NCBI GenBank assembly: GCA_041664265.1 | Contig: JBAYLD010000004.1 | Coordinates: forward strand, 33,470 to 97,469 | Length of the DNA stretch: 64,000 bases | Direction of reading: 5' to 3' | Origin: Minisyncoccota bacterium | GTDB lineage: Bacteria > Patescibacteriota > Minisyncoccia > Phycocordibacterales > Phycocordibacteraceae | Part shown: positions 8,033-32,222 of the stretch, piece after piece | Position numbering within the stretch: position 1 is the first letter of the stretch | Layout of the letters: every line of letters starts with the position of its first letter | Notes under the pieces: generated by a model | Databases searched by the model: none | Seen by the model: the letters and a program-made list of their open reading frames with translations, nothing else | Told to the model about the DNA's origin: nothing | Made by a program: the position numbers and the translations under genes

Positions 8033-10909
8033 TTACGGTGTGGTGGTGTGACGCGTGTCCATCCCCGCGAGAGGCACGGTGACATAGAAGGTTGTACCGT
8101 TTTGCTCCGCAGAATCTCTTGAGGCACCGAACGCTCGCGGCGACGGCGACTCGCACCATATCCGTCCGTGGTATTGGTCGACGGCCGCCTTTGCTATATA
8201 GAGCCCCAGACCGGTGCCCTTCACCTTGTCGTCAGTTTGGACCCGGAACAGTTTTTCGAATATTTTTTTCTGCTGATCTTTTGGTATGCCGTTGCCGGTG
8301 TCGGATACCGCGATCAGGGCGTCGCGCCCCTTCTTCTTGATCTCGATGAGGAGGGTACCTCGATCGGGGCTGTATTTTATAGCATTGGAGATCAGGTTCT
8401 CAAGAATAATCTCCATGAGCCGCCGGTCGATCTCAATGTCGGGGATATCCTCGTAGAGCTTTTTGACCCGGATTTCTTTTTCTTTCAGGGCAATACCCAC
8501 ATCTTCTAGCATCTTGTCCGAGAACTTTGTCAGGTTCACCGGCTCGAGGTTGATAACCAGCGTCCCCATCTGGATCCTCGAGATGTTCAACAAGGTCTCG
8601 ATGATGTCGGTCATATCCTTGATTCCTTTAAAGGCTATTTTCAGGTACTTCTTCTGTTCTCTAGTCAGCAGATCGTTCACATGGTGGAGTAGCATGTCGA
8701 TAGAGAGGCTAATACTCGTCAGGGGCGTCCGCAGCTGGTGGGAGGCGAAGGAGATGAATTCATTTTTTGCCTTATCAACTTCTCGCTCATGCGTGATATC
8801 TCTCCATGCGACAACCGCTCCCATGACTTCGCCATCGACGACAAAGGGCGCGGCGCTGATCGAGAGAGGGACCTTGCGCCTATCCTTTTTATTGACGAGG
8901 TGGAATGTGGTGGCGGTCGATATCGGCAAGGTCTTCTGCACTTCTGGATCGAGCGCGAGATAGATGGGCCGCTTCTCTTTTGGCACCCGCTGCCCCCGGT
9001 CATCGAAAAACGGAATCGATTCATCCAAATCCCGATGCAGGATTTCTTTTGCATCCATCCCGCACAATTTTTCGAGTGCGCTGTTTATGTATATTATTTT
9101 TCCCGACATGTCGGTCACGAGGATACCGTCAGCGATACTCAAGAGGAGCGCATCATCGCGCGCCTTCCCCTCGGCCATGCGATCTGCATATTCTTGTACC
9201 TGGTGTTCGGATTCTTTTTGTTTGCTGATGTCCCTGACGATCGAGGTATAAAACCGTTCCCGTCCGAACTTCCACGAAGACGAAGACACCTCCATCGGGA
9301 ATTCTTCGCCGTTCTTCCGCAGGCCGCGCATCTCGAGCGGCCCGCTCTCTTTGGCCAGCGGGGCGTCTTTCCCAGCCGCTTGGTTTTCTACCCCCAGGAC
9401 GAACGGCTTGCCTAGAACCTCCTTTTCGTCATACCCAAAAATGCGTTTCGCACTTTTATTCCAATATACGACGCGCCCCGCGCTATCGAACGTAATGAGC
9501 GCGTTTCGTATCGAGTCCGCCACCGAACGGAATTTTTGCTCATTTTCCTTCAACTCGCTCAGGGCTCGCTGGTTCTGGAGGGCGAGCGAAGCCATGTGCC
9601 CGAACGCGCTCGCGATCCGCTTGTCGTCCTCGGTAAAGCCGCCCGGCTTGCTCACGAATGCGAAAAATCCTGCAGGGAGGCCGTTGAGCAGTATCGGCAC
9701 GAGGAGGGCGCTCTGTATGACAATGCGGTTCCGGAACGGGTTGGCGCCCTGGTTCTCTAGGGTGAAGAAGAAATCGTTGTCGAGCACCGTTTTCCCTGTC
9801 CTGCACATTTTTTTCATGGCGCTTTTCATGGGGGCGGATTGTGTCACGTCGGCAACGCATTTCTGCAGCAAGGAATCGCAATACACGATTTCTGCCTGCT
9901 CATCTTCTCTGCCCTGCAAAACGGCGTAGCAGGATTCTGCGCCGATAGTTTTTTTGCACGCGTCGGCTATCGCTTCTGCCGAGTCTTTAAACTCGGTGTG
10001 CTTCAGAGCTTCTTGCGCGCTTCGGGAGAGGGAAGCCGTCTCTGATTCGTGCATCTCAGAATCTTCGAGAGCCTCCTGCAGATCCTCTTCTTTCTCCTTA
10101 ACGCTTTGGAGCAGTTGCTTATACGGATCCTTGAAGCTGATCGTCGCTACCGCCTGATAGAAGAAATAAAAAGAGACAACGCCCAGGGAATTCCCGATCA
10201 GATTAGAGAGATCATTCGCGCCCGCATACCACACGAAGAAGGCGGCCGAGGCGATACCGGTCGCCACCGATGAACACAAGAGATAGAATATTTTCTTCTC
10301 AAAGGCGGGGCGTCTCCATATCAAGAGCAGCAGCGAGAGAAGAAGTGCGAGGGAGACGGTGATGCCGCTCGCCCGGGTAAACGCGGTCTGCCCAACACCT
10401 TCGATATAGGAGACCGGAAATGCGTTCCAATAAAATATCGAGAACAACAAGAGGAACGTGGCGATCGCATAGGCGAGCAAGACCATGTCCACTTTTATCC
10501 TTTTGCCGATGAAGAACGGGGCCGCAACAAACGCGCTCGCCTGGAGATATTGCGTGGCGACCCAGAGCTGGGTCGCCACGTTGGTCTCGGTACTTTCGGA
10601 AGAGACGTTCATGCCTCCATAGGACAACAAATGGAGCAAGCTGGTGAAGGCGGTCGCGATAACTGAAATGCCGATAAACAGCACGTACTCGTTATTCAAA
10701 TAATCTCGGGCATTCAGAGTGATGACGAAGATGAGCACCATCAGCACGATACCGGAGAGCTCGGTCAAGTTGTGGAGCGAGAGGCGGTTATCAAGGCCGA
10801 CCAAGTAGAGCACCGCGAGCGCCAGCGCGCCGACGGCGGTATAGCGGTAGATGTCCGCAGGTATCGCTCTGGCTTGGAGAAGCACCTGTTCTCGGATGCT
10901 CAATAGCAT
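8033..10909 (-). CDS. Sensor histidine kinase with multiple TM, PAS and GAF domains
   Basis: H-box SHQLRTPL, HATPase GTGLGLYIAK, roughly 8 N-terminal TM helices and PAS repeats. Confidence 0.85.
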   Translation of the reverse strand: MLLSIREQVLLQARAIPADIYRYTAVGALALAVLYLVGLDNRLSLHNLTELSGIVLMVLIFVITLNARDYLNNEYVLFIGISVIATAFTSLLHLLSYGGMNVSSESTETNVATQLWVATQYLQASAFVAAPFFIGKRIKVDMVLLAYAIATFLLLFSIFYWNAFPVSYIEGVGQTAFTRASGITVSLALLLSLLLLIWRRPAFEKKIFYLLCSSVATGIASAAFFVWYAGANDLSNLIGNSLGVVSFYFFYQAVATISFKDPYKQLLQSVKEKEEDLQEALEDSEMHESETASLSRSAQEALKHTEFKDSAEAIADACKKTIGAESCYAVLQGREDEQAEIVYCDSLLQKCVADVTQSAPMKSAMKKMCRTGKTVLDNDFFFTLENQGANPFRNRIVIQSALLVPILLNGLPAGFFAFVSKPGGFTEDDKRIASAFGHMASLALQNQRALSELKENEQKFRSVADSIRNALITFDSAGRVVYWNKSAKRIFGYDEKEVLGKPFVLGVENQAAGKDAPLAKESGPLEMRGLRKNGEEFPMEVSSSSWKFGRERFYTSIVRDISKQKESEHQVQEYADRMAEGKARDDALLLSIADGILVTDMSGKIIYINSALEKLCGMDAKEILHRDLDESIPFFDDRGQRVPKEKRPIYLALDPEVQKTLPISTATTFHLVNKKDRRKVPLSISAAPFVVDGEVMGAVVAWRDITHEREVDKAKNEFISFASHQLRTPLTSISLSIDMLLHHVNDLLTREQKKYLKIAFKGIKDMTDIIETLLNISRIQMGTLVINLEPVNLTKFSDKMLEDVGIALKEKEIRVKKLYEDIPDIEIDRRLMEIILENLISNAIKYSPDRGTLLIEIKKKGRDALIAVSDTGNGIPKDQQKKIFEKLFRVQTDDKVKGTGLGLYIAKAAVDQYHGRIWCESPSPRAFGASRDSAEQNGTTFYVTVPLAGMDTRHTTTP

Positions 10910-20328: not shown

Positions 20329-21105
20329 ATGAGCATCATCTTCTTCGACACCGAGACCACCGGCAACGGCGACAAAGATCGCCTCTGCCAGCTCGCTATC
20401 AAAGAGCGATATGTTGACGAGCCGCTGGTCAATGCGACCTATAAGCCGCCGGTGCCGATCTCGATCGAGTCGATGGCGATCCACCATATCACCGAGCGGA
20501 TGGTGGCGGGGCGGTCGGCGTTTAAGGACGCGCCAGAATACGAGAGCGTGAAGGATCTTTTTGAGAACAGCGAGACGATTGCGGTCGCGCACAACGCGAC
20601 CTTCGACATCGCGATGCTCGCGCGCGAGGGCATCACGCCCAAGCAGACCATCTGCACCTACAAGGTCGCCTACGCGCTCGACCCGAGCGACACCCTGCCC
20701 AATTATCGGCTCCAATATTTGCGCTACCTGCTTGATCTCGACGTCGAGGCCGAGGCGCACGACGCTTGGGGTGACGTGCTGGTGCTCGAAGCGCTCTTTG
20801 AGCGGCTTGTGGCGAAGATGAAGGAGCGCCACGGGACCGAAGAAGCCGCGCTCGCCGCTATGCTCGCGATCTCGGCGCAGCCCTTGCTCTTTACCACGCT
20901 GCGTTTCGGCAAATATAGCGGGAAGCGCCTGGAGGACATCGCGAAGACCGATCGGAGCTACCTCGAATGGCTCCTAGCCGAGAAGAAAAAATCTCCGGCA
21001 GGAGAGGAGGATTGGATCTATACGCTGGAGTATTACTTAAAGCCGCAGTCGTCAGACGCCCCGCCGATTACCGCATCGGAGCATGAATCCCGTAGTAGAA
21101 TTTAG
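20329..21105 (+). CDS. DnaQ-like DEDDh 3'-5' exonuclease fused to an ExoX-C-like domain
   Basis: Exo I FFDTETTG, Exo II AHNATFD, Exo III HDAWGD. The C-terminal domain carries FGKYSGKRLEDIAKTDRSYLEWL (DUF3820-like). Confidence 0.75.
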   Translation: MSIIFFDTETTGNGDKDRLCQLAIKERYVDEPLVNATYKPPVPISIESMAIHHITERMVAGRSAFKDAPEYESVKDLFENSETIAVAHNATFDIAMLAREGITPKQTICTYKVAYALDPSDTLPNYRLQYLRYLLDLDVEAEAHDAWGDVLVLEALFERLVAKMKERHGTEEAALAAMLAISAQPLLFTTLRFGKYSGKRLEDIAKTDRSYLEWLLAEKKKSPAGEEDWIYTLEYYLKPQSSDAPPITASEHESRSRI

Positions 21106-21113
21106 GTTTGGTT

Positions 21114-21410
21114 ATGTTCTACAACTACGTACTACAGAGTAAGAAAAATAATGAATTCTATATTGGGTATACTACCGACCTAAAAAGGAGGTTAGCAGAA
21201 CATAACCGAGGGTTAAATCCTTCGACCAAGCGATATATGCCGTGGCAAATCATCTACTACGAGGCTTGTCTAAACGATGCAGATGCTAAAAGGCGAGAAG
21301 GGTATATGAAAACGACCCAAGGTGGTAGATTATTGAAGAGAAGATTGAAAGAGTTCTTATATGAATCGAGGTCGAAGGATTTAACAAACCTAAATTTCAC
21401 TACAGGATGA
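21114..21410 (+). CDS. GIY-YIG nuclease family protein (UPF0213-like). AT-rich.
   Basis: YVLQSKKNNEFYIGYTTDLKRRLAEHN matches the GIY-YIG core. A local GC drop is visible. Confidence 0.7.
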   Translation: MFYNYVLQSKKNNEFYIGYTTDLKRRLAEHNRGLNPSTKRYMPWQIIYYEACLNDADAKRREGYMKTTQGGRLLKRRLKEFLYESRSKDLTNLNFTTG

Positions 21411-21805
21411 ACACCTACGACACCTATCAAACATTGATCAAACCCTCGTGGGCGCCGCCCGCATGGATCTTCGGCCCGGTGTGGACTCTGCTCTATGTGA
21501 TCATCGCGATCACTTTCGGCATGATCTTTTATCGGGCGTTCATCAAGAAGGATTTGCCCAAGCTGGTCGCCCTGCCGTTCATCCTCAACCTCGTCTTCAA
21601 CTTCTCCTTTACCTACTTCCAATTTACCCTCCAGAACTACGCCCTCGCGTCGCTCGATATCCTGCTCGTCCTCGGCACTCTCATCTGGGGGATGTCTAGC
21701 GTCTGGCGCCGCGCCCGCTGGATCGCACTCGCCAACATCCCGTATCTGGTGTGGGTAAGTTTTGCAACAGTTTTGCAACTGACGGTGACGTATCTGAATT
21801 GGTAG
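21407..21805 (+). CDS. tspO: TspO/MBR family membrane protein, shorter than usual
   Basis: KPSWAPPAWIFGPVWTLLY signature. Confidence 0.7.
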   Translation: MNTYDTYQTLIKPSWAPPAWIFGPVWTLLYVIIAITFGMIFYRAFIKKDLPKLVALPFILNLVFNFSFTYFQFTLQNYALASLDILLVLGTLIWGMSSVWRRARWIALANIPYLVWVSFATVLQLTVTYLNW

Positions 21806-21833
21806 CTTAATTATCTTGCTATAGTATTTCGTA

Positions 21834-22493
21834 ATGGGACTGGCTATAAAGAATCTCCCCACGCACGAGCGTCCGCGCGAGAAGCTTATCGCGAAGGGTG
21901 TGGGGAACCTTACTGATAAAGAGCTGCTCGCCATCCTTTTGCGCACTGGTAGAACAGGGAGGAGTGCGATCGATATCGCCGAGAGCATTCTCGCGAAATA
22001 TCCAAAGAAGGAGATTCTGAACATTTCGTTTGCCGATTTAAAAAAGATGAATGGCATCGGCGCAGACAAAGCATGCACACTTCTCGCAGCGTTTGAGTTC
22101 ACAAAGCGTGTACTCGATGTGCAGAAAGGCGGTCGGCCAATCATTGAGAACACCGAACAGGCACTCGCACAGCTTCACGACATCCGCAATCATAAAAAAG
22201 AACACTTCGTCGCGCTTTACCTCAACGCGCGTAACGAGCTCATTCATCGAGAAGATATTTCTGTCGGCACGGTAAACGCAAGTATCGTGCATCCACGGGA
22301 AGTGTTTGCCCCTGCGCTCGAACACAACGCCACTGCGGTGATCGTCGCCCACAACCATCCCTCCGGCTCGGCCGAACCTTCTCCAGAAGATCATGAAGTT
22401 ACTACGCGTCTCAGGGAAGCAGGGAAGCTACTCGGTATTTCGTTCGTTAATCATCTGATTGTCACAAAAGATAGCAATTCAGCCGTATTTTAG
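21834..22493 (+). CDS. radC: RadC-like JAB/MPN domain protein
   Basis: HHH-like N-terminus and JAMM motif HNHPSG..P.S..D. Confidence 0.85.
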   Translation: MGLAIKNLPTHERPREKLIAKGVGNLTDKELLAILLRTGRTGRSAIDIAESILAKYPKKEILNISFADLKKMNGIGADKACTLLAAFEFTKRVLDVQKGGRPIIENTEQALAQLHDIRNHKKEHFVALYLNARNELIHREDISVGTVNASIVHPREVFAPALEHNATAVIVAHNHPSGSAEPSPEDHEVTTRLREAGKLLGISFVNHLIVTKDSNSAVF

Positions 22494-22556: not shown

Positions 22557-22877
22557 ATGGAAGTGGACTGGAGAAACGAGAGTGACCGCACGCGAGTTGA
22601 AAAACTTGCGCGCAAGAATCGGGTCACGGAGCGACGAATGCAACGTCTCGTGGCCGCGAAGAACTTCCTCGATCTCCAGCTTCCAGCCAATGGTCGCGCC
22701 CATTTTTTAAAAAGAGAGTACGAAGGGTACTTTGCTCTCGATCTGGAAAGTAAGACTCGGGCACATCGTCTCATCTGCAAACCGGCGGGCGATTTTGAAA
22801 AGAAGGGAGGACAATACGTCAAAGAGAGTATTACCAAGATAGAGATTATAAAAATAGAAGAGGATTACCACGACTAA
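22557..22877 (+). CDS. higB: HigB-like toxin of the RelE/ParE superfamily
   Basis: C-terminal ...IEEDYHD and LKREYEGYFAL resemble HigB. It lies immediately upstream of a HigA-like HTH gene, in the usual toxin-first order. Confidence 0.6.
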   Translation: MEVDWRNESDRTRVEKLARKNRVTERRMQRLVAAKNFLDLQLPANGRAHFLKREYEGYFALDLESKTRAHRLICKPAGDFEKKGGQYVKESITKIEIIKIEEDYHD

Positions 22878-22878
22878 C

Positions 22879-24024
22879 ATGATTCACCGTAGCACCAAAA
22901 GTACCGGCTGGCAGCCCACTGCACTCGTTCACCCCGGCGAGCACCTTCTCGATTTCCTAGAGGAGAGTGGTATTTCGCAGGCTGAGCTTGCGGCACGAAC
23001 GGGTATTTCAAAAAAAGCCATCAATGAGATCGTAAACGGTAAGAGTCCCATTACGCAAAACACCGCCTTTAAACTGAGCAAGATTCTCTCGGTGTCTCCA
23101 GAATTCTGGATAAACCTACAGAGTAATTATGATCTGGCGCTTGCACAGAACGCAGAGTGTCAAAGGCTCGAGGGCGAGGCGGTCGCACATGCGCAAGATT
23201 TTAAGGAAACATATCAGGAACTTGAGAGGCGCGGCTTTGTGCCGGCATGCAGATGGGCAAAGAAAAACATTCTTGAGATTACGCGGAATCTCCAGCACTT
23301 TTTCGCCGTTGATTCTCTAGCGTATATTGCCGAAGACACTATGGAGTTTGCCTTTCGCAAATACAACCGAAAGAACGTAAATCAGTACACGCTCGCCGCC
23401 TGGGTACAACTCGGGAAGATCCAGGCCAAGCTCGTCGAGGCGAAGTCTTTTGATAGGGAGAAATTGAAATCGGAGTTACCGAAAATTAAGTCTTTGTCTC
23501 GCAAGGACTGGAAGGAATACGCGCCTGAGCTGGAGAAATTACTCGCGGACTGTGGCGTAGTGCTTGTTCTCGCACCTCGATTTACGCATGTGCCGGTACA
23601 GGGCGCGACGCACTGGATAGAGAGCGAGAGAGTTCTCGTGATGCTTAACACAGAGCATCAGTATGAAGACCGTTTCTGGTTCAGCTTATTTCACGAACTT
23701 GGGCATGTGCTTCTGCACGGTAAGAAAGATGTGTATGTCGACTTCGATAAAGACGGCGAAAAGACGGAAGAAGAAAAAGAGGCAGACGCATTCGCACAAA
23801 AGTGGCTTATTCAGGATCTAGACGAATTCTATGCCCTACTTAAGAAAACGGCGGATCTGGAAGGTTCTGTCAAGAAGATCGCAGATATAAATGGTGTTTC
23901 AGAAGCAGTCGTCGCTGGGCGCATTACGCACGATCATGCTACGACGCAGAGAATCTACGCGCTTATGAGCCCTTTCCAAAAAGAGAGAATCGAATACTCA
24001 AATATTACCTTCAATAACGCATAA
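22879..24024 (+). CDS. HigA-like XRE-family HTH fused to an ImmA/IrrE (COG2856) Zn-metallopeptidase domain
   Basis: N-terminal HPGEHLLDFLEESGISQAELAARTGISKKAINEIVNGKSPIT...PEFWINLQ matches the HigA HTH. The C-terminal HEXXH motif reads FHELGHVLLH. Confidence 0.7.
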   Translation: MIHRSTKSTGWQPTALVHPGEHLLDFLEESGISQAELAARTGISKKAINEIVNGKSPITQNTAFKLSKILSVSPEFWINLQSNYDLALAQNAECQRLEGEAVAHAQDFKETYQELERRGFVPACRWAKKNILEITRNLQHFFAVDSLAYIAEDTMEFAFRKYNRKNVNQYTLAAWVQLGKIQAKLVEAKSFDREKLKSELPKIKSLSRKDWKEYAPELEKLLADCGVVLVLAPRFTHVPVQGATHWIESERVLVMLNTEHQYEDRFWFSLFHELGHVLLHGKKDVYVDFDKDGEKTEEEKEADAFAQKWLIQDLDEFYALLKKTADLEGSVKKIADINGVSEAVVAGRITHDHATTQRIYALMSPFQKERIEYSNITFNNA

Positions 24025-24028
24025 ACGT

Positions 24029-24220
24029 ATGGACACCTGCAAAAAGTGCGGAAGTAAGAATGTGATGGGAGTCGAGTACAGTTGGGACAGTCCGGAGCAT
24101 TATGACGGTGTGAGCGAGGTGGAGTGCCGCGACTGTGATGCCCGCTTTGGCCGTTGGAGCGGCAAAGAGCTGACAGAAGGCGAGGCAGAAAAAGCATCTG
24201 CACGCTTTGCGGTACAATAA
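24029..24220 (+). CDS. Small Zn-ribbon protein (CKKC...CRDC)
   Basis: Four Cys in a C-x2-C...C-x2-C arrangement. It is tightly packed between the HTH-ImmA gene and hsdR. Confidence 0.4.
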   Translation: MDTCKKCGSKNVMGVEYSWDSPEHYDGVSEVECRDCDARFGRWSGKELTEGEAEKASARFAVQ

Positions 24221-24271: not shown

Positions 24272-26641
24272 ATGAAAGATATGACTGACCCAAACCTCTC
24301 AGAGCGCGATATCTGCACGAAGTACATCACTCCGGCACTCGTGGCGGCAGGGTGGAATATCCAGACTCAAGTCAGAGAAGAATTGAGCTTCACGGCCGGA
24401 CGCATCAATATACGCGGTAAGACCATTTCGCGCGGAGAAAAGAAACGTGCCGACTATGTCCTGTACTATAAAAACAATCTCCCGATCGCTCTTATCGAAG
24501 CGAAAGATGCGAATCACTCGGTTGGTGACGGGATGCAGCAAGCGCTTGCGTATGCTGAAGCACTCGATATCTCGTTTGTCTTCAGCTCAAACGGTGCGGG
24601 GTTTCTGGAGCACGATCGATTGAAAACAGGAGGGGATATTGAACAGGAAATTGCTTTGGAGGCATTTCCGAGCCCGGGTGCCCTTTTTGAACGGTATCAA
24701 CACGGAAAGAATCTGGACGAAGAGGAACGCGATATCCTGCTACAGGAGTATTTCCAAGATGGATCCGGTCGTGGCCCGCGCTACTATCAGATCAATGCCA
24801 TAAATCGCGTGGTAGAAGCGGTCGCAAAGGGCCAGAACCGCATCATGCTCGTCATGGCGACGGGGACCGGCAAGACCTACACCGCATTTCAAATCATTTG
24901 GCGGCTCTGGAAGGCAAAAAAGAAACAGCGCATATTGTTTCTTGTTGATCGAACAGCGCTTGCAGACCAAACAAAGAACAGCGATTTTCGACATTTCGGC
25001 AATGCCATAACGAAGATTGATGGTCCGAAAGTTGATCCGGCCTACGAGGTGTATATCGCGCTCTATCAGGGGCTCATGGGTGGCGAGGAGACAGAGAAAT
25101 TTAAGCAATTTTCACCGGATTTTTTCGATCTGGTCGTAGTGGATGAGTGTCATCGCGGTGTCGCGAGAGATGATGCACTCTGGCGCTCAATCCTCGACTA
25201 CTATGCGAGCGCCACGCATATCGGCCTTACGGCAACTCCTAAGGCAGCTGACGATGCGAATAATTTTGAATATTTCGGCGCGCCTATCTACACCTACTCC
25301 CTCAAGCAGGGGATTGAAGACGGCTTCCTTGCGCCGTATAAAGTCATCCGATACATTTTAGATAAAGACGAATGGCGGCCCGATAGTATGGTGCGCGACA
25401 CGAGTGGCAACCAGATCGAAGATCGCATTTATACCACCGCAGACTACGACACGAAGCTCGTTATAGATGCGCGTGCCAAGCTCGTTGCCGCGAAAATCGT
25501 TGAGTTCATGCGCGAAACCGATCCGATGCAGAAAGCTATCGTTTTTTGTGTCGATCAGGCTCACGCTGAGCGGATGCGCGAAGCGCTCGTCAACGCGAGT
25601 GGGGAATATGCGGCCCAAAATAGCCGCTATGTCGTGCGCATCACCGGTGATGATACCTACGGCAAGCTTGAAATAGATAACTTCACGAATCCCGAATCTC
25701 CGTATCCAGTCATCGCCACTACGTCAAAGTTGCTCTCTACTGGCGTCGATACCCAGACAGTAAAGCTCATCGTGCTTGATGCCCCGATGAACTCTATGAC
25801 CGAATTTAAACAAGTCATCGGCCGAGGCACGCGCATCAACGAGCAGTACGGTAAGTACTACTTCACCATCATGGACTTCCGTAACGTCACACGGCTTTTC
25901 GCCGATAAAGACTTCGACGGTGAGCCGGTCGAGAGTTACGAACGCAAAGTTGAGGAGACACTGCCGATCAAGCGCATTATCGAAGAAGAAACCGTCTCTG
26001 AACGTGAGATCATCGAGCATAATCCGCAAGAAGAAATCCTTATTGATGGAACCGAAGAGAATCCGAAGCCGAAGAAGATACATATCGCTGATGGGGTTAC
26101 CTTCGACGTGATCCATAAGCTGGTGCAGTATATTGATCCAGCGACTGGTAAACTCATCACCGCGTCGCTCCAGGACTACAGTAAGAAGGCTGTCTGTGGT
26201 ATGTATGCTTCGCTTGAAGACTTCCTCAACCGATGGAACGCTACCGAGCGCAAAGAAGTGATTATCAGTGAGCTCGCCGAGCGTGGCGTTATCTTTGATG
26301 AGCTTCGCGCAGAGGTAGGGCAGGAGTGCGACGTGTTCGACCTCATCACACAGGTCGCTTTTGGCAAGAAGCCGCTCACACGGAGTGAGCGGCTGAAGAA
26401 CGTGAGGCAGAGCGACTACTTCGCCAAATATGAGGGTCAGGCACGCGAGATTATTAATCACCTCTTAGAGAAGTATGCCGAGTATGGCATTACTGCCATA
26501 GACGACATCGGTGACTTGCAGGTCTCGCCCTTTAGTGATTATGGCGCGCCGGTTGAGATCGTGGATGGTATCTTCGGCGGTCGCGAGCAATATTTACAAG
26601 TTGTTCGCGAGATCGAGCGGCAGTTGTATAGTGCTTCGTAG
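24272..26641 (+). CDS. hsdR: Type I restriction enzyme R subunit
   Basis: HsdR N-terminal nuclease region, helicase motif I VMATGTGKT and motif II VVDECHRG. Confidence 0.9.
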   Translation: MKDMTDPNLSERDICTKYITPALVAAGWNIQTQVREELSFTAGRINIRGKTISRGEKKRADYVLYYKNNLPIALIEAKDANHSVGDGMQQALAYAEALDISFVFSSNGAGFLEHDRLKTGGDIEQEIALEAFPSPGALFERYQHGKNLDEEERDILLQEYFQDGSGRGPRYYQINAINRVVEAVAKGQNRIMLVMATGTGKTYTAFQIIWRLWKAKKKQRILFLVDRTALADQTKNSDFRHFGNAITKIDGPKVDPAYEVYIALYQGLMGGEETEKFKQFSPDFFDLVVVDECHRGVARDDALWRSILDYYASATHIGLTATPKAADDANNFEYFGAPIYTYSLKQGIEDGFLAPYKVIRYILDKDEWRPDSMVRDTSGNQIEDRIYTTADYDTKLVIDARAKLVAAKIVEFMRETDPMQKAIVFCVDQAHAERMREALVNASGEYAAQNSRYVVRITGDDTYGKLEIDNFTNPESPYPVIATTSKLLSTGVDTQTVKLIVLDAPMNSMTEFKQVIGRGTRINEQYGKYYFTIMDFRNVTRLFADKDFDGEPVESYERKVEETLPIKRIIEEETVSEREIIEHNPQEEILIDGTEENPKPKKIHIADGVTFDVIHKLVQYIDPATGKLITASLQDYSKKAVCGMYASLEDFLNRWNATERKEVIISELAERGVIFDELRAEVGQECDVFDLITQVAFGKKPLTRSERLKNVRQSDYFAKYEGQAREIINHLLEKYAEYGITAIDDIGDLQVSPFSDYGAPVEIVDGIFGGREQYLQVVREIERQLYSAS

Positions 26642-26644
26642 GCC

Positions 26645-28087
26645 ATGGTTGACATTCAGAACATCATCAAGGCGATTCAGGACATCATGCGCAAGGATGC
26701 GGGGGTCGACGGTGATGCCCAACGTCTGTCACAACTCGTCTGGATGCTCTTCCTCAAGATTTTCGATGACCGAGAAAAGAATCAAGAATACATAGACCCC
26801 ACGTATCGCTCGCCGATACCCGAGAAGCTTCGCTGGCGGAGCTGGGCAGCTGATTCAGAGGGCATGACGGGCGAAGAGCTCCATTCTTTTATCGACAAAG
26901 AGCTTTTCCCGGCGCTCAAGAATATCCCACTGGGCAATGTTGAATCATCGGCTGGCATCGTGCGGGGTGTTTTTACCGACTCTTATAACTATATGAAGAA
27001 CGGTACGCTCATTCGGCAGGTCGTGAACAAGATTCAAGAGATCAATTTCAATAAGAAAAACGATCGGCATCAATTCGGCGATTTGTACGAGAAATTGCTT
27101 AAAGATCTCCAGAGTGCCGGGAACGCGGGCGAGTTCTACACGCCGCGCCCGCTCACGAAATTTGTGGTGGAGATGATGGCTCCCATGCTTGGTGAAAGTG
27201 TCCTTGACCCTGCTTGCGGCACCGGCGGCTTTCTCATAAACGTGCTCGAATACGTTCGAGCACACGAGGTCAAGACGGCCGCAAATGAGAAGAAACTTGA
27301 AGCATCGGTACACGGGGTGGAGCTGAAGCCGCTCCCGCACCTCCTCGCGACTACCAACTTCATGCTGCACGATGTGGAAATTCCTTCTACGGTGCGACGT
27401 GATGATATGCTCGCCAAGCCACTGACACAATATGGTCCCAGTGATCGTGTAGATATCATCGTGGCAAATCCACCATTCGGTGGGATGGTGCAGGATGGCA
27501 CTCAAGCTAACTTCCCGAGTGAGTTACGAACTAAAGACACCGCGTTACTCTTTCTCCAGCTGTTCATTCATCTCTTGAAGCCACAAGGCCGAGCTGGAAT
27601 CGTATTGCCCGATGGCGTTCTCTTTGGTGAGGGCGTTGCGAGCAAGATAAAAGAGAAGCTTCTGACCGAATGCAATGTGCATACGATCGTGCGACTCCCG
27701 CAGGGTGTTTTCAGTCCCTACGCGGGCGTGAACACGAACCTAGTCTTCTTCGAGAAGGGAACTCCCACAAAAGAAATTTGGTACTACGCGATGCCGCTCC
27801 CAGAAGGCTTGCGACAATACAGCAAGGGCACGCCGATTAAAGATTCTGAATTTGAACCCGTGAAGAAATGGTGGGGTGGGGTAGAGCGCAAGGGGCGCAA
27901 GGCGAGCGAGTACACATGGAAAGTCTCCATCGATGATATCCGTGCTCGCAACTACAACCTCGACTTCAAGAACCCCAACGCCCCCGCCGCCACCGAACAT
28001 AAAACTCCGAAAGAACTTCTGGTCGATATTGAAAGTAAGGAAAAACAAATCTCCGCGCTGTTGGGGGAGATGAAAAAGGAGATATGA
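26645..28087 (+). CDS. hsdM: Type I restriction-modification N6-adenine methyltransferase subunit
   Basis: VLDPACGTGGFL and NPPFGG motifs. Confidence 0.9.
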   Translation: MVDIQNIIKAIQDIMRKDAGVDGDAQRLSQLVWMLFLKIFDDREKNQEYIDPTYRSPIPEKLRWRSWAADSEGMTGEELHSFIDKELFPALKNIPLGNVESSAGIVRGVFTDSYNYMKNGTLIRQVVNKIQEINFNKKNDRHQFGDLYEKLLKDLQSAGNAGEFYTPRPLTKFVVEMMAPMLGESVLDPACGTGGFLINVLEYVRAHEVKTAANEKKLEASVHGVELKPLPHLLATTNFMLHDVEIPSTVRRDDMLAKPLTQYGPSDRVDIIVANPPFGGMVQDGTQANFPSELRTKDTALLFLQLFIHLLKPQGRAGIVLPDGVLFGEGVASKIKEKLLTECNVHTIVRLPQGVFSPYAGVNTNLVFFEKGTPTKEIWYYAMPLPEGLRQYSKGTPIKDSEFEPVKKWWGGVERKGRKASEYTWKVSIDDIRARNYNLDFKNPNAPAATEHKTPKELLVDIESKEKQISALLGEMKKEI

Positions 28088-28779
28088 AAAAATCATTTAA
28101 GACAAAATTCAATATTTTCTTACGGAAAGAACCGAACAGAGCTTCTGAAGGCGTCTTGATTCCTGCCGGAACAAAAATTGAAGGTCTAGAAACGGTTAAA
28201 GGGGAGAGTGTAGAAGATATAGACAATTGGTACAAAAACGAAAATGGATTGTATTTTTGGGCCGGTGGTGTAGAAGAAATTACATCAGAAAGCCCGAGCT
28301 TTATTTGGCCAGTTGAGTCAATTTACAAAAAAATAACAACTCCCTTCTCAGAAAAATGGATTCTCAATTTGAAGAAAAAACACACAGGTGTAGATATTGC
28401 CGTGCCAGTTGGTAAAGAAGTTTACGTAGTCGCAGACTGTGTTGTTAGAAAAATTGGCTGGCTCGATCAGAAAAAAACGATGGCTCAATATGTGACGGTT
28501 GAGCATGATTCCAGTGGATACTGCTCTGCTTATTTGCATATTGATCCTGCGGTAAAAAAGGATGACAAACTAAAAGCAAAAGATATCGTTGGGCATACGG
28601 CCCAATTGATAGACATGGGTTCTCACCTGCATTTCAATTTTTGGAAAGGGACATATAACGACTTACTTTGTCGTGGGGCACTCCCGTCTTTAGAATTTGC
28701 AGGAACAATACATCCCGTGAGTGACCCTGCTTTCCCTTCAAATTTTGTGGATCCCATGTCAGTCTTGTATCTCGATTAA
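28084..28779 (+). CDS. M23 (LytM/lysostaphin-type) metallopeptidase with an SH3b-like N-terminal domain. No signal peptide. AT-rich.
   Basis: HTGVDIA (HxxxD) and GSHLHF (HxH) motifs. The ATGA overlap with the hsdM stop indicates translational coupling. Confidence 0.65.
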   Translation: MKKSFKTKFNIFLRKEPNRASEGVLIPAGTKIEGLETVKGESVEDIDNWYKNENGLYFWAGGVEEITSESPSFIWPVESIYKKITTPFSEKWILNLKKKHTGVDIAVPVGKEVYVVADCVVRKIGWLDQKKTMAQYVTVEHDSSGYCSAYLHIDPAVKKDDKLKAKDIVGHTAQLIDMGSHLHFNFWKGTYNDLLCRGALPSLEFAGTIHPVSDPAFPSNFVDPMSVLYLD

Positions 28780-28783
28780 GGGT

Positions 28784-29536
28784 ATGACCTGCCTAACAAA
28801 AAAATCAAAAGAGATAAGTTCTCTTGATTTAAGTAATCAGAAGGGAATGATGGACTTTTTACGAGCACCAACGGTAAAGATCGCAGAATTTATTACCGGC
28901 GTTCTTGTTTCAGAACAAAAGGATTGGAAATTTTCGGCAGGCAAACTTGTACAAGCTGCTATAAAAGGAAATCTACTTACTCAACTAGGGCGAGAAATAG
29001 AAAAATATCGCAATGAAGGTAGGATTAAAGAGGATTATTTCGCGACTCATAAAAATCAAGCCTCGCTCTATGAGTTATTGAAGTTTTTAGACGAAGAAGT
29101 ACCGGACGAAGAACTTTTTAAAGCAATTAAATCTATTTTCTTTGCAGGTATAAGTGTCGATTCAGATGCGCAAAACGAGGCTTTAGCATATGAATTTTTG
29201 CAAACTGCAAAAAAATTGAATGGAACAGAGATTCTGATTCTAAAAGCCAATTTTGATATTGTGCGAGGTCACCCAATAGCCGAAGTACAAAAACGTATGG
29301 AAGACACAAGTAATAACCACAATAGAGGACGCTGGCGCAAATTTATTTCGATTCAGATGGGTTACAGCGATTTTGATGCCGTAGTACGTAAATATGAGGC
29401 TCATCTTGAAGAGTTGTGTCTGATTACACCTCGCAATGAAGATAACCGATTTGTCAATGATTATGAACCTTCTCAAAAATTCCGACTTACTGAAATTGGA
29501 TTTAAATTTTGTGAGTTTATGACCAAATATGAATAG
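28784..29536 (+). CDS. Hypothetical protein, possibly HEPN-like. AT-rich.
   Basis: Contains RKYEAH (Rx4H). Its end overlaps the hsdS start (ATGAATAG). No confident family assignment. Confidence 0.45.
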   Translation: MTCLTKKSKEISSLDLSNQKGMMDFLRAPTVKIAEFITGVLVSEQKDWKFSAGKLVQAAIKGNLLTQLGREIEKYRNEGRIKEDYFATHKNQASLYELLKFLDEEVPDEELFKAIKSIFFAGISVDSDAQNEALAYEFLQTAKKLNGTEILILKANFDIVRGHPIAEVQKRMEDTSNNHNRGRWRKFISIQMGYSDFDAVVRKYEAHLEELCLITPRNEDNRFVNDYEPSQKFRLTEIGFKFCEFMTKYE

Positions 29537-30656
29537 TGTGCGAACAAAAAAACTAGGGGAGGTTTTGGAGAAGATTCCGAAGATTGTCGGTGTGCTTACA
29601 AAAGATTATCTAGACGAGGGAATGTTTCCAATCGTAGACCAAGGGCAATCGTTTATTGCCGGTTATACCAATGATATTGCAAGTGTTTACTGTGGAGAAT
29701 TGCCAGTAGTTATTTTTGGCGACCATACACGGGCAATGAAGTTCATCGATTTTCCGTTTGCTATTGGTGCGGATGGAACAAAGATTCTGAAACCGACAAG
29801 CGAATTTGATGCAAAATTCTTTTATTATTTTTTACTGTCGATAAATATTCCAGCCAGAGGTTACGCGAGGCACTACTCGTTACTTAGAGAGTTTAAAATC
29901 CCATTGCCGACGGTGGGGGAGCAGAAGAAAATTGTGGCGAGGATAGAAAAGCAGTTTGCGAAGATTGATGAGGCCGCATGCCTGCGTGCAGAATCGCTTG
30001 CTTCGACTGAACAAATTTTTCCTGCTATCCTCCACGAAATTTTTTCCTCTGCCGAATCAAAAGAGTGGGGATTAGTGAGCATCACCAACGAGGCTTTCTT
30101 TCAAGAAGGCCCGGGCATCCGTTCATATGAGTATGAAGACGACGGCTATCCAATGATTAATGTTCGTTGCGTTCAGGATGGGCGTATCAATCTCACGGGC
30201 GGTAAGGCAGCGTCGCGCGAATTGGCGGAGGGAAAGTGGAAACATTTTCAAGTGCAGGTGGGGGATATTCTCTTCACCACATCTGGCACCATAGGCCGTG
30301 TTGCGGTCGTTCAGGAGTATGACCTGCCACTCCTTATGAATACGAGCGTCGTTCGTTTTCGCACGCTTGACGAAAGTCGGCTAGCAAATGATTTCTTGTA
30401 TTGGGTTCTTCGGTCGCCTGATTTTGTAAACGGGCTCAAAGTGCAAAGTACGGGTTCAGCTCAGCAAAACGTCGGGCCGTCGCACATTAAGAAAATGCAA
30501 ATTCCCCTGCCACCCCTCGCTGAGCAGAAGGAGATTGTGAAGAAGCTCGATGCCTTGTCTGAGAAGGTTCGGGCGCTGCAGGAGCTTCAATCCGCCCAAG
30601 CCACCGACCTGAAGGCTCTCAAGCAGTCCATTTTGCATGAGGCGTTTTCTGGATAA
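29529..30656 (+). CDS. hsdS: Type I restriction-modification specificity subunit
   Basis: Two target-recognition domains separated by conserved LP(T/P)(V/L)(G/A)EQKKIV repeats. Confidence 0.85.
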   Translation: MNSVRTKKLGEVLEKIPKIVGVLTKDYLDEGMFPIVDQGQSFIAGYTNDIASVYCGELPVVIFGDHTRAMKFIDFPFAIGADGTKILKPTSEFDAKFFYYFLLSINIPARGYARHYSLLREFKIPLPTVGEQKKIVARIEKQFAKIDEAACLRAESLASTEQIFPAILHEIFSSAESKEWGLVSITNEAFFQEGPGIRSYEYEDDGYPMINVRCVQDGRINLTGGKAASRELAEGKWKHFQVQVGDILFTTSGTIGRVAVVQEYDLPLLMNTSVVRFRTLDESRLANDFLYWVLRSPDFVNGLKVQSTGSAQQNVGPSHIKKMQIPLPPLAEQKEIVKKLDALSEKVRALQELQSAQATDLKALKQSILHEAFSG

Positions 30657-30660
30657 GCCC

Positions 30661-30680
30661 TTAAGGTGTCACCTTACGGG
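30661..30680. repeat. PAL-A copy: taaggtgtcaccttacgg
   Basis: GGTGTCACC core with CCTTACGG arms. Confidence 0.75.
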
Positions 30681-30779
30681 CTTAAGAAGGGCTATATTGG
30701 GTTGGATAAATTGCCGTATTTTGTACTCCTCACCTCGTAGCCATTGACTAGATTGAGTATCCGATCAAGGATCGGTTAT

Positions 30780-31208
30780 ATGGACATAAGTCGAGAACTT
30801 GCGATCGAAATCCTAAAATACCTAGATGAACACTCGGGCTTCTATTTTCCGTTTTTAGTCATGTGCAAGGAATATTCTGATGAGGATAATAACTTCGTCG
30901 AGATCGAGCCGGATGAATGGCGGATGATTAAAGAGGATGACAAATATCAGACTTTCCAGCTCTGGGAGAATCTTCAAAACCTAGACAAAGAAACGCTCGA
31001 CCTTATGTCGCGGGGATTTATCCAGAAGATCACGAACATTTCACTAGAATTTCACATCGCTACGTTGGCAAAAAGTTATCGAAATGAGTGGAAGAAGCAT
31101 CTGCCAGAAAACGAGAAAATAGGGGCTTATGGTTTCAATGAATTCATCGGTGGTAAGGCAGAAGGATACGAAGATTGTCTTGATTTGATCAAATCTTACA
31201 TAAATTAA
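30780..31208 (+). CDS. Hypothetical protein, AT-rich cassette gene
   Basis: Intact ORF bounded by PAL repeats. No family recognised. Confidence 0.4.
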   Translation: MDISRELAIEILKYLDEHSGFYFPFLVMCKEYSDEDNNFVEIEPDEWRMIKEDDKYQTFQLWENLQNLDKETLDLMSRGFIQKITNISLEFHIATLAKSYRNEWKKHLPENEKIGAYGFNEFIGGKAEGYEDCLDLIKSYIN

Positions 31209-31211
31209 CCT

Positions 31212-31260
31212 CCGTAAGGTGACACCTTGGATACTTTGGGTACATAGGGCTCGATGTAGC
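31212..31260. repeat. Partial PAL-A copy (ccgtaaggtgacacctt) plus a degenerate PAL-B copy (ggtacatagggctcgatgtagc)
   Basis: Sequence match to the two repeat families. Confidence 0.65.
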
Positions 31261-31325
31261 AAGGGTAGATTCTGGGAATATGTTAGAACCTTTCGTTCTT
31301 TGGTATACAAGAGTATGCTGATTTT

Positions 31326-32222
31326 ATGGCGGATAGTGAAAAAACTAAGTCGTTGACGGCAGACGATTTTAAAAAGAAGTTCAATCTTGAAAACATAAGC
31401 TTCCCGGAGCCATTGGCGTTTTCCAACGCTATCGGTATTGGAGTTAAGAAGGTATACCCAACAGGTTTTGCATCTGTGTATGGGGTTGAGATAGCACGAC
31501 ACAAACCTCAACCGACCTCTAGAAAAAGTTTATTTGCACACGTTGCGTATGGAAAAGATACACCGGAAGGGGTTATCTTAATGTCGGACAAAAAATTGTC
31601 CGATCCGATTGACTTAAACTTTGACGATGAGTTCTCGTTCGATTTACAAACGGATAAGTTTTATTACAAAGATCAGGAAATTCGGCCAGAGGAGATTTTC
31701 ACTATTATTGACAAGGCTCACAAAAAACCCTCGCAGCCAATTACTGGGTTTCCCTTAAGATGCAAACTTTGGTTTTGGAGAAAATTCCTCACAGGCGTCA
31801 TAAAATATCTCGATATTTTCTTAATAGGACTGCTGTGGGTAATTTCTGGAGAGCGAATCAAGGGAGGTATTTGGAGGCGCATCATCAACATACACTCAGA
31901 TAAGCGATACCAAATAGAAGGGAAAGACGGTTTATTTGAGGAGGCAAGAACAATGGAATTTTTTGGATATAAGGCAAAACGATGGTCCGTCGTTTTCTAT
32001 TGTGTTCTGCACCTGACCATTTTCTCTATTTTCTTCTGGAAGAAGGTTTCGTATTCATTTATTGATCAAGTGTTCAGTAGCAATTTTCTTGCTCTTTGTT
32101 ATGTTGTAGTTTCATTTGCGACCACCGAATCGTTGGTGCCCAGGCTACTAAAATCAGCAATAAATGAACTGACTCCGAGGATGTTTAGCAATATCTCGGA
32201 TAAGAAACTTGCAATAAGCTAA
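31326..32222 (+). CDS. Hypothetical protein with a C-terminal multi-TM region. AT-rich.
   Basis: Intact ORF with an N-terminal soluble part and C-terminal hydrophobic helices. Confidence 0.4.
   Translation: MADSEKTKSLTADDFKKKFNLENISFPEPLAFSNAIGIGVKKVYPTGFASVYGVEIARHKPQPTSRKSLFAHVAYGKDTPEGVILMSDKKLSDPIDLNFDDEFSFDLQTDKFYYKDQEIRPEEIFTIIDKAHKKPSQPITGFPLRCKLWFWRKFLTGVIKYLDIFLIGLLWVISGERIKGGIWRRIINIHSDKRYQIEGKDGLFEEARTMEFFGYKAKRWSVVFYCVLHLTIFSIFFWKKVSYSFIDQVFSSNFLALCYVVVSFATTESLVPRLLKSAINELTPRMFSNISDKKLAIS

Follow-up and report, generated by a model that had tools for sequence, protein, structure and literature searches.

An intact type I restriction-modification (RM) operon in Patescibacteria has gained an AT-rich segment of about 2 kb at the junction between hsdM and hsdS. 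The acquired segment comprises two unrelated single-gene modules, here called X and Y, and apparently the first recognition domain of hsdS as well. X is a predicted, catalytically intact M23 peptidoglycan endopeptidase that carries a wall-binding module and has no export signal. Y belongs to a family of horizontally mobile, AT-rich genes that lie mostly beside restriction systems of several types, and profile comparisons relate this family weakly but consistently to Abi-alpha/DUF4393. The explanation that we prefer, with about even confidence, is that two independent defence-island cargo genes, which are not obligate partners, recombined into the junction, where they may provide a lysis-type backup.

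The RM operon and its AT-rich segment

In the window (the whole 64,000-nucleotide stretch of DNA that was analysed), five plus-strand genes are tightly packed head-to-tail in the order hsdR-hsdM-X-Y-hsdS. The hsdR gene (24272-26641) encodes an intact restriction subunit of 789 aa with an EcoEI-type C-terminus (Pfam ResIII, 1.8e-42; EcoEI_R_C, 5.8e-29; PADLOC REase_I at full length), and hsdM (26645-28087) encodes an intact methyltransferase of 480 aa (Pfam N6_Mtase, 1.8e-71; HsdM_N). The specificity subunit encoded by hsdS (29529-30656, 375 aa) is also intact, with two target-recognition domains seen as two stretches of Pfam Methylase_S (PADLOC Specificity_I, 3.1e-64). Full-length Pfam and PADLOC matches were thus obtained for all three subunits, identifying a type I RM system. 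X (28084-28779, 231 aa) and Y (28784-29536, 250 aa) lie between hsdM and hsdS. The start of Y was set at the ATG at 28784 from the N-termini of its homologues; the mechanical open reading frame opens at a GTG at 28721. Upstream of the operon, also on the plus strand, a protein with an HTH domain and an M78 (ImmA/IrrE-type) domain is encoded at 22879-24024 (Pfam HTH_3 and Peptidase_M78; PADLOC PD-Lambda-2_B, 7.1e-34, and many RmrA models); it may regulate the island or act as its sensor. The locus is present with 100% identity on two further metagenome contigs (L001 and L002). The organism is uncultured, and X and Y are known here from sequence alone.

An earlier sequence-only reading had described all five genes as translationally coupled, which is approximately right. 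True overlaps occur at two of the four junctions, both as that reading had given them: the ATGA at 28084-28087 contains both the stop of hsdM and the start of X, and the hsdS start (ATG at 29529) lies inside the 3' end of Y, whose TAG stop occupies 29534-29536, resulting in an 8-nt overlap. The other two junctions are gaps, of 3 nt between hsdR and hsdM and 4 nt between X and Y. Given the tight spacing and both overlaps, X and Y are probably transcribed together with the RM genes. Within the operon, the counts of internal promoters and terminators were below those of shuffled sequences.

The base composition sets X and Y apart from the genes around them. Their GC contents were 0.395 and 0.361, compared with 0.510 for hsdR, 0.515 for hsdM and 0.542 for the whole window, and the difference was larger at third codon positions (0.353 and 0.283, versus 0.613 for hsdM), which bears out the proposal that both are foreign insertions in the operon. 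The composition profile and the per-gene GC and GC3 values delimited a low-GC block (0.35-0.43) from about 27950 to about 30000. Besides the very end of hsdM it takes in X, Y and the first target-recognition domain of hsdS, which at 0.427 is GC-poor like X and Y. This block was likely the unit of recombinational replacement. The genes 3' of hsdS (30744-32222) likewise have a GC content of about 0.40. Repeats flanking the insertion were short only and at chance level, and no tRNA gene was found close to the locus as an island boundary.

A related type I operon (L019) recorded how such cargo may move. Its hsdR and hsdM share 56% and 69% identity with those of the window. Next come a gene for a DUF3800 protein (PADLOC PDC-M04A, 1.2e-17), a relic of the 3' end of hsdM covering aa 415-477, a membrane protein gene and finally a homologue of X with 63% identity. 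The relic implies that recombination occurs at the hsdM/hsdS junction. The AT-rich segment may have arrived in the same manner, by homologous recombination through the conserved 3' end of hsdM, and the relic would then be the trace of one such event. This is new, direct sequence evidence for the hsdM 3' end as a recombination handle in cargo swapping.

The M23 protein X and its neighbourhoods

X matched Pfam Peptidase_M23 (PF01551) over residues 99-189 with 58.4 bits against a cutoff of 28.7. Its architecture comprises an SH3b-like β domain (about residues 1-65), the M23 catalytic domain (about 75-190) and a C-terminal tail (197-224) that is conserved and peculiar to the family. Both LytM catalytic motifs noted in the sequence-only reading, HTGVD at residues 100-104 and HLH at 181-183, match the canonical M23 motifs and align with those of the solved M23 enzymes 2gu1, LytU and ShyA. 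Across 17 sequences, the residues corresponding to the zinc ligands of HxxxD and HxH (H100, D104 and H183) and both catalytic histidines (H152 and H181) are invariant. The predicted structure (pLDDT 77, with two loops of low confidence) has the LytM-type β fold, and its top Foldseek matches were ShyA, LytM, zoocin A and lysostaphin, all with probability 1.00. Foldseek also returned the degenerate LytM domains of EnvC and DipM, but X is very improbable as a catalytically dead regulator of the EnvC/NlpD type, since EnvC and NlpD lack the ligands and histidines that are invariant here.

The SH3b-like N-terminus without a signal peptide, also pointed out in the sequence-only reading, turned out to be a feature of the whole family. 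No signal peptide or hydrophobic stretch was found in the first 60 residues of X or any of its 16 relatives, and the confident β domain of the X model begins already at residue 3. The wall-binding module is SH3_3-like in most members and is replaced by PG_binding_1 in two (P0136 and P0138). Because the catalytic and tail residues are strictly conserved among sequences of only 42-72% identity, the function of X appears to be under selection.

Restriction systems and DNA methyltransferases adjoin X repeatedly. In addition to L019, where X lies downstream of hsdM in the one other type I operon, its neighbours include a HinP1I RM system, methyltransferases of the N6_N4, D12 and LexA-S24-fused types, and DUF3800 proteins; those next to X in L010 and L019 showed no detectable mutual similarity by BLASTP. 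Small membrane proteins usually flank the relatives of X and are absent at this locus, so the usual partner of X may be missing here. Among these flanking membrane proteins only two were related to each other (L003_dn245 and L009_up237, E 2.5e-8), and no conserved partner of X emerged.

The Y family and its possible link to Abi-alpha

Y had been regarded as having no known family and as a putative HEPN ribonuclease on account of an Rx4H string, and neither view held. The string itself, RKYEAH, is present once at residues 202-207. However, both R202 and H207 vary in the homologues, no other conserved R...H pair was found in them, and the confident structural model is helical throughout, with a C-terminal part resembling a winged helix, and lacks the HEPN four-helix fold. 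A HEPN identity is thus ruled out by sequence conservation and predicted fold, and the locus is extremely improbable as an RM-linked RNase of the PrrC/RloC kind. Those anticodon nucleases combine an ABC-ATPase-like N-domain with a C-terminal nuclease domain; neither an ATPase nor a nuclease domain was detected in X or Y.

The family of Y is large, with 713 clusters at 50% identity drawn mainly from Patescibacteria and Omnitrophota records, and shows a sub-threshold but reproducible link to Abi-alpha/DUF4393 (PF14337, cutoff 29 bits). Y itself gave no match to this model at E<=1, its relatives scored 16-26 bits, and 1 of 46 members of a wider family set reached E<=0.01. In the reverse direction, the Y-family HMM placed the DUF4393 reading frame first among all those of phage phiNM1 (E 6e-4); this gene, at 8828-9685, was located from the RefSeq annotation of identical proteins. 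Another phiNM1 gene (1402-2334, 310 aa), which carries an RNxxxH motif, had no similarity to Y. Aligning the two families with hhalign gave a score of 28.9 (P 0.002, at a low probability of 13%); among the controls, 20 shuffled ones scored 9.4-19.3 and the reversed one 13.6. Searches elsewhere returned little: Y had no match to the PDB by sequence, to BFVD viral structures with its model, or to phage and plasmid records by tblastn, and the family gave nothing useful against PHROGs and no relatives in IMG/VR.

Contigs were scanned for the family with a profile of 13 closer sequences. Restriction or defence loci accounted for 8 of 11 distinct contexts, this window included, a small sample; the context counts of X and Y are raw and carry no formal background. 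The seven other such contexts hold an MmeI-type enzyme overlapping by 4 nt (L098), an MvaI/BcnI RM system (L105), a PLD-SNF2 helicase with an Eco57I-type methyltransferase (L095), a DpnI_C fragment (L097), a LexA-S24-methyltransferase fusion (L104), HNH and Mrr proteins (L106), and two methyltransferases with NOV_C (L107). The remaining three are housekeeping-like (rpoB, SecDF and an RHS region). In all ten other loci the GC content of the Y gene lay 4-11 points under that of its surroundings. No neighbour was conserved, and the small genes downstream were mutually unrelated.

Proposed role and relation to known systems

The sequence-only reading had treated X and Y as one combined system. Their pairing was limited to this lineage: Y was absent from all 13 X loci elsewhere (relatives of 42-72% identity), and X from all ten other Y contexts. 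We therefore rejected X-Y as a conserved pair. Each of them does recur separately in defence islands or RM loci. If they are independent cargo, as we prefer, Y would be a distant Abi-alpha relative that works on its own as a second line of defence, aborting infection where restriction has failed. X would be held harmless in the cytoplasm, in the way of phage endolysins and pneumococcal LytA, and would gain access to the wall only once a phage holin, Y or another Abi protein had breached the membrane. At the wall it would hasten lysis, bursting the cell ahead of the maturation of progeny phage. A joint lysis role of X and Y, as in the RM-coupled lysis module suggested in the sequence-only reading, is possible, and together at this locus they may back up the RM system by lysis.

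The cargo might instead be non-defensive, which we consider unlikely. X would then be a lysis or wall-remodelling enzyme that a mobile element left behind or that hitch-hikes with one, or else it would serve an episymbiotic way of life; Y would be a winged-helix regulator of restriction expression, and the junction merely tolerant of insertions. The endolysin-like architecture of X and its 'endolysin' matches in PHROG agree with such an origin, as do the CHAP protein, Pif1 helicase, LexA-like repressor fusions and RVT_3 found in the neighbourhoods of its relatives, but holin and phage structural genes were absent beside X in 14 loci, and X, like Y, had no relatives in IMG/VR viral contigs or in phage or plasmid records. 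The strict conservation of the catalytic and tail residues also argues against a leftover. As for Y, its C-terminal half resembles the winged helices of MarR and IdeR, whereas its occurrence beside restriction systems as unrelated as types I, II, IIG/MmeI and IV is better explained by defence-island cargo than by a cognate regulator. Neither protein matched any family in PADLOC-DB 2.0 at E<=0.1, which is consistent with a non-defensive role.

A bolder proposal, which we hold to be improbable, casts the signal-less SH3b/PG_binding-M23 family as a dedicated 'suicide lysin' in Patescibacteria. Encoded by the host and kept in the cytoplasm, this wall hydrolase would be the effector of restriction-linked abortive infection, set free by a membrane-breaching Abi-alpha-like protein such as Y or, at other loci, by a neighbouring small membrane protein. 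If this were true, peptidoglycan hydrolysis from within would be a new effector class in anti-phage defence.

We give little credence to X and Y as one dedicated two-gene defence system, in which Y would detect infection or a failure of restriction and then free or activate X to lyse the cell. The two genes are adjacent, AT-rich and probably co-transcribed, and the premature-lysis phenotype of Abi-alpha (PMC6356687) would suit a putative stored wall hydrolase. However, they do not co-occur outside this lineage, their GC3 values differ (0.35 for X and 0.28 for Y), and Y has no conserved partner anywhere. The independent-cargo explanation accommodates the separate distributions.

To our knowledge, no catalogued defence system uses an M23 wall hydrolase of this kind. 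A small family of signal-less, predicted cytoplasmic M23 wall hydrolases that recurs with restriction systems in Patescibacteria is new, as is a large family, lacking annotation, whose members of about 240 aa lie beside four types of restriction system and seem to be a remote offshoot of Abi-alpha. If the lysis interpretation were true, it would provide a testable link from the 'premature lysis' of the Abi-alpha type to a defined effector and extend the scant knowledge of how candidate phyla radiation bacteria resist phages.

Phage endolysins and pneumococcal LytA are signal-less wall hydrolases kept in the cytoplasm. Like X, they combine a catalytic domain with a wall-binding module, have no signal peptide, and need a membrane lesion for access to their substrate. 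X differs in its M23 domain, its N-terminal binding module and its conserved C-terminal tail, and differs from a phage endolysin also in having no holin or lysis cassette nearby. LytM, lysostaphin, zoocin A and ShyA/MepM are exported enzymes with the same fold and the same HxxxD / H / HxH set as X, whereas X and its 16 relatives have no signal or anchor. Lysostaphin also joins M23 to SH3b; in X the domain order is reversed.

Abi-alpha EF2833 of Enterococcus faecalis, the one member for which this phenotype is known, is a single-gene abortive-infection protein that causes premature lysis (PMC6356687). The Abi-alpha proteins (DUF4393, PF14337) of E. faecalis prophage 6 and of staphylococcal prophages are, like the Y family, single-gene, about 240-285 aa long, mobile and AT-rich. 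The two families share colinear motifs: an N-terminal W...G, FA.LI against KSIF, F.EIIKQLSP.DA..LK against YEFLQ..KKLS..EILILKA, SI.NL.RLGLI against E.NL..LGLIS, and a C-terminal LT..G..F...C. They differ in that the match of the Y family stays under the Pfam cutoff and the window Y gives none, and Abi-alpha is mostly prophage-borne, whereas the viral, phage and plasmid collections yielded no relatives of Y. The outcome proposed for X and Y has a functional analogy in AbiZ of Lactococcus, which brings lysis forward, bursting cells ahead of phage maturation, and is thought to act with the phage holin (PMC13064643). AbiZ is unrelated in sequence to X and Y and does not include a wall hydrolase.

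Defence genes lodged inside type I RM operons form a well-established pattern (PMC11411939, PMC12255303, bioRxiv 10.1101/2024.01.29.577857), so the architecture as such is already known. PrrC, RloC, TgvAB of Vibrio cholerae VPI-2 and DarTG2 of EPEC, cases of 'guilt by embedding', are likewise foreign genes placed between intact type I subunits and co-transcribed with them. The cargo described here holds no anticodon nuclease, GmrSD-like enzyme or toxin-antitoxin pair, its host belongs to the Patescibacteria, and its two genes are independent modules, not a pair, that have no PADLOC match. The junction is a recombination hotspot in the systems described earlier (PMC11411939, PMC12255303, bioRxiv 10.1101/2024.01.29.577857), and the hsdM relic in L019 points to the same behaviour here.

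Organization and composition of the operon

The hsdR (24272-26641), hsdM (26645-28087) and hsdS (29529-30656) genes, all on the + strand, are full length by both Pfam and PADLOC. X (28084-28779, 231 aa) and Y (28784-29536, 250 aa) lie between hsdM and hsdS on the same strand, confirming that the two genes are set into a type I RM operon. The hsdM stop and the X start share an ATGA, the hsdS start lies 8 nt upstream of the Y stop, and gaps of 3 and 4 nt separate hsdR from hsdM and X from Y. No promoter-like or terminator-like sites stood out when the operon sequence was scanned. A mechanical ORF call placed the start of Y at GTG 28721, but the N-termini of its homologues fit ATG 28784, which we therefore take as the true start.

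The cargo differs from the RM genes in base composition. GC3 is 0.353 in X (GC 0.395) and 0.283 in Y (GC 0.361), compared with 0.613 in hsdM (GC 0.515) and 0.592 in hsdR (GC 0.510); the GC of the whole window is 0.542. The AT-rich X-Y segment is thus of foreign origin, as the sequence-only reading had claimed in calling it an insertion. The low-GC block begins at the end of hsdM and reaches into hsdS, whose first recognition domain has GC 0.427 and GC3 0.425 and whose remainder has 0.505 and 0.546. This span suggests that the whole hsdM-hsdS junction was swapped in a single recombination event.

This reading is supported by a related locus from Hainich groundwater (L019), a second type I operon with an X relative. 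Here hsdR (56% identical to the window hsdR) and hsdM (69%) are followed by a DUF3800 protein that matches the PADLOC candidate PDC-M04A (1.2e-17), a relic of the hsdM 3' end, a 231-aa membrane protein and an X homologue (63%) cut off by the contig end. The relic (L019 4753-4947; aa 415-477) lies 3' of the intact hsdM and the DUF3800 gene and directly 5' of the membrane-protein/X cassette. It is 51% identical to the window hsdM and 82% identical to the hsdM of its own locus over 39 aa. This second, partial hsdM 3' end shows that cargo enters and leaves along with the 3' end of hsdM, the relic being a footprint of recombinational exchange.

The low-GC island spans about 22-34 kb. At its head, a 106-aa ORF without a family match (22557-22877, +) precedes an HTH-M78 (ImmA/IrrE-type) gene (22879-24024, +), whose product gave a near-full-length match to PADLOC PD-Lambda-2_B (7.1e-34) and also matched many RmrA models and the N-terminus of the HigA antitoxin; together (22557-24024, +) they could act as a sensor module or as one resembling a toxin-antitoxin pair. 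A 63-aa ORF that separates the HTH-M78 gene from hsdR (24029-24220, +) showed a sub-threshold likeness (24.5 bits, cutoff 28.6) to the restriction-alleviation protein Lar (PF14354); it would be odd for a restriction system to have a Lar-like gene right in front of hsdR. Two more AT-rich ORFs of the same island (30744-32222, +; GC 0.40) lie 3' of hsdS. They encode proteins of 154 aa and 298 aa, the C-terminal half of the latter containing several hydrophobic segments, and neither had a match in Pfam, NCBIfam, PHROG or PADLOC at E<=0.001. Two inverted copies of a 17-nt sequence, 100% complementary and each holding the small palindrome AAGGTG-n-CACCTT, are located right behind the hsdS stop (30663-30679) and right behind the stop of the ORF at 30744-31208 (31212-31228); short hairpin terminators, REP-like elements and a protein-binding site are possible readings of the pair. 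On its upstream side the island is bordered (20329-22493, +) by genes for an RNase_T/ExoX-like exonuclease, a GIY-YIG protein, a TspO/MBR membrane protein and a RadC-like JAB protein, several of them characteristic of regions with mobile or defence functions.

The X hydrolase

X matched Pfam Peptidase_M23 with 58.4 bits (cutoff 28.7), its motifs line up with those of solved M23 enzymes, and its structure model matches ShyA, LytM, zoocin A and lysostaphin. PHROGs returned 'endolysin' families, and NCBIfam gave only sub-threshold likeness to ShyC, MepM and Pgp3. The family is small (18 proteins among 5.8 billion), all metagenomic, and its named members are Patescibacteria. H100, D104, H152, H181 and H183 are invariant, as are R197-G-A-L-P201, E204, D214, F217-P218, F221 and P224 in a C-terminal tail peculiar to the family. 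A hydrophobic N-terminus was absent in every family member checked, so X is indeed an M23 peptidase that lacks an export signal. In the structure model, residues 1-65 are confidently folded as an all-beta domain; the SH3_3 matches in homologues were sub-threshold. In two family members PG_binding_1, above its cutoff, takes the place of this domain. The swapping of wall-binding modules between members argues for peptidoglycan as the substrate.

The Y family and its likeness to Abi-alpha

Y matched nothing in Pfam, NCBIfam, PHROGs or PADLOC at E<=0.001 or above any curated cutoff. Its family is large, with 199 matches in a word-indexed database and 713 clusters at 50% identity by exhaustive search, and Patescibacteria or Omnitrophota MAGs account for most of the few records that carry a name. 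The HEPN-like character proposed from the RKYEAH string could not be maintained, as the string is not conserved in homologues; only E205 and L208 are conserved in this region.

The relatives of Y point instead to Abi-alpha (DUF4393, PF14337). Pfam Abi_alpha matched 34 of 49 relatives at E<=1, the best at 9.7e-6 (26 bits, cutoff 29), and the matches taken together span the model colinearly; in a more divergent sample, the match was found in only 1 of 46. As a bona fide DUF4393 reference we used phage phiNM1 8828-9685, whose product is identical to the 'DUF4393 domain-containing protein' in RefSeq records of 80alpha, phiJB, 88 and phiPVL108. Ranked by the Y-family HMM, this ORF came first of all phiNM1 ORFs (E 6e-4). 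Alignment of the Y family with six DUF4393 sequences by hhalign scored 28.9 (P 0.002, probability only 13%), against 9.4-19.3 for 20 column-shuffled controls and 13.6 for the reversed one. Five colinear motifs are common to both families. These results make Y a probable distant branch of Abi-alpha, short of formal membership.

The same phage (L113) encodes, between its excisionase and cI repressor genes (1402-2334, -), a 310-aa protein with a conserved RNxxxH (RNIINH, RNSVSH or RNSISH in relatives), a string of the sort that HEPN nucleases typically carry. Every record seen labels the protein simply as hypothetical.

Genomic contexts and comparison with known systems

X and Y do not belong together as a pair, because Y was absent beside X relatives (42-72% identity) at all 13 other distinct loci, and X was absent in all 10 other Y contexts. 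Each family is separately associated with restriction systems. X relatives neighbour the type I system of L019, a HinP1I RM system with DUF3800 (L010), and N6_N4, D12 and LexA-S24-fused methyltransferases (L003, L004, L007, L009). Y relatives overlap an MmeI-type enzyme by 4 nt (L098), or lie directly 3' of an MvaI/BcnI RM pair (L105), 3' of a PLD-SNF2 helicase and an Eco57I-type methyltransferase (L095), 3' of a DpnI_C fragment (L097), next to a LexA-S24-methyltransferase fusion (L104), within an HNH/Mrr island (L106), or 3' of two methyltransferases and a NOV_C protein and adjoining a serine recombinase (L107-L112). No conserved neighbour was found across the Y contexts, three of which have housekeeping-like neighbourhoods (rpoB, SecDF and an RHS region). 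Y genes are everywhere 4-11 GC points lower than their surroundings, as expected of mobile accessory genes. The main rival reading, unlikely at perhaps one chance in four, is a non-defensive cargo: X would be a hydrolase of a mobile element or of the episymbiotic lifestyle, and Y a regulator of the winged-helix type. Of the sequence-only reading, the insertion, the signal-less peptidase and the defence context stood, while the HEPN assignment and the dedicated two-gene system did not.

Small single-pass membrane proteins often flank X, just two of them related to each other, and none was found at the window locus. Proteins in which a LexA DNA-binding domain and an S24 peptidase are fused to a DNA methyltransferase recur in Patescibacteria near X and Y relatives alike (L004 1043-2545, L007 1352-3187, L104 5319-6770). 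It is unusual for a methyltransferase to carry a self-cleaving repressor, and such a fusion may switch modification in response to damage or infection. RNase-like NYN-domain genes (~205 aa) occur within a few genes of Y relatives at two unrelated loci (L095 10004-10615, L107 8491-9114), perhaps by chance or perhaps as recurrent companions in such islands.

Abi-alpha is a single-gene abortive-infection protein with which infected E. faecalis lyses about 10 minutes early, by an unknown mechanism (PMC6356687; bioRxiv 10.1101/2025.10.23.684294). In a defensive cargo, Y would provide a stand-alone, Abi-alpha-like second line. X would be held in the cytoplasm, gain access to the wall only once the membrane is lesioned, and then make lysis faster; the two effects may combine at the window locus. 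The embedding itself is not new, since defence genes such as PrrC, TgvAB and DarTG2 in type I RM operons are well documented and a systematic survey listed 3,231 embedded protein families (PMC11411939, PMC12255303, bioRxiv 10.1101/2024.01.29.577857). What the window locus has in common with the PrrC, TgvAB and DarTG2 loci is this embedding; what is new is its cargo, a family of cytoplasmic M23 hydrolases that no defence catalogue contains and a large family that accompanies restriction systems and is probably a distant relative of Abi-alpha.
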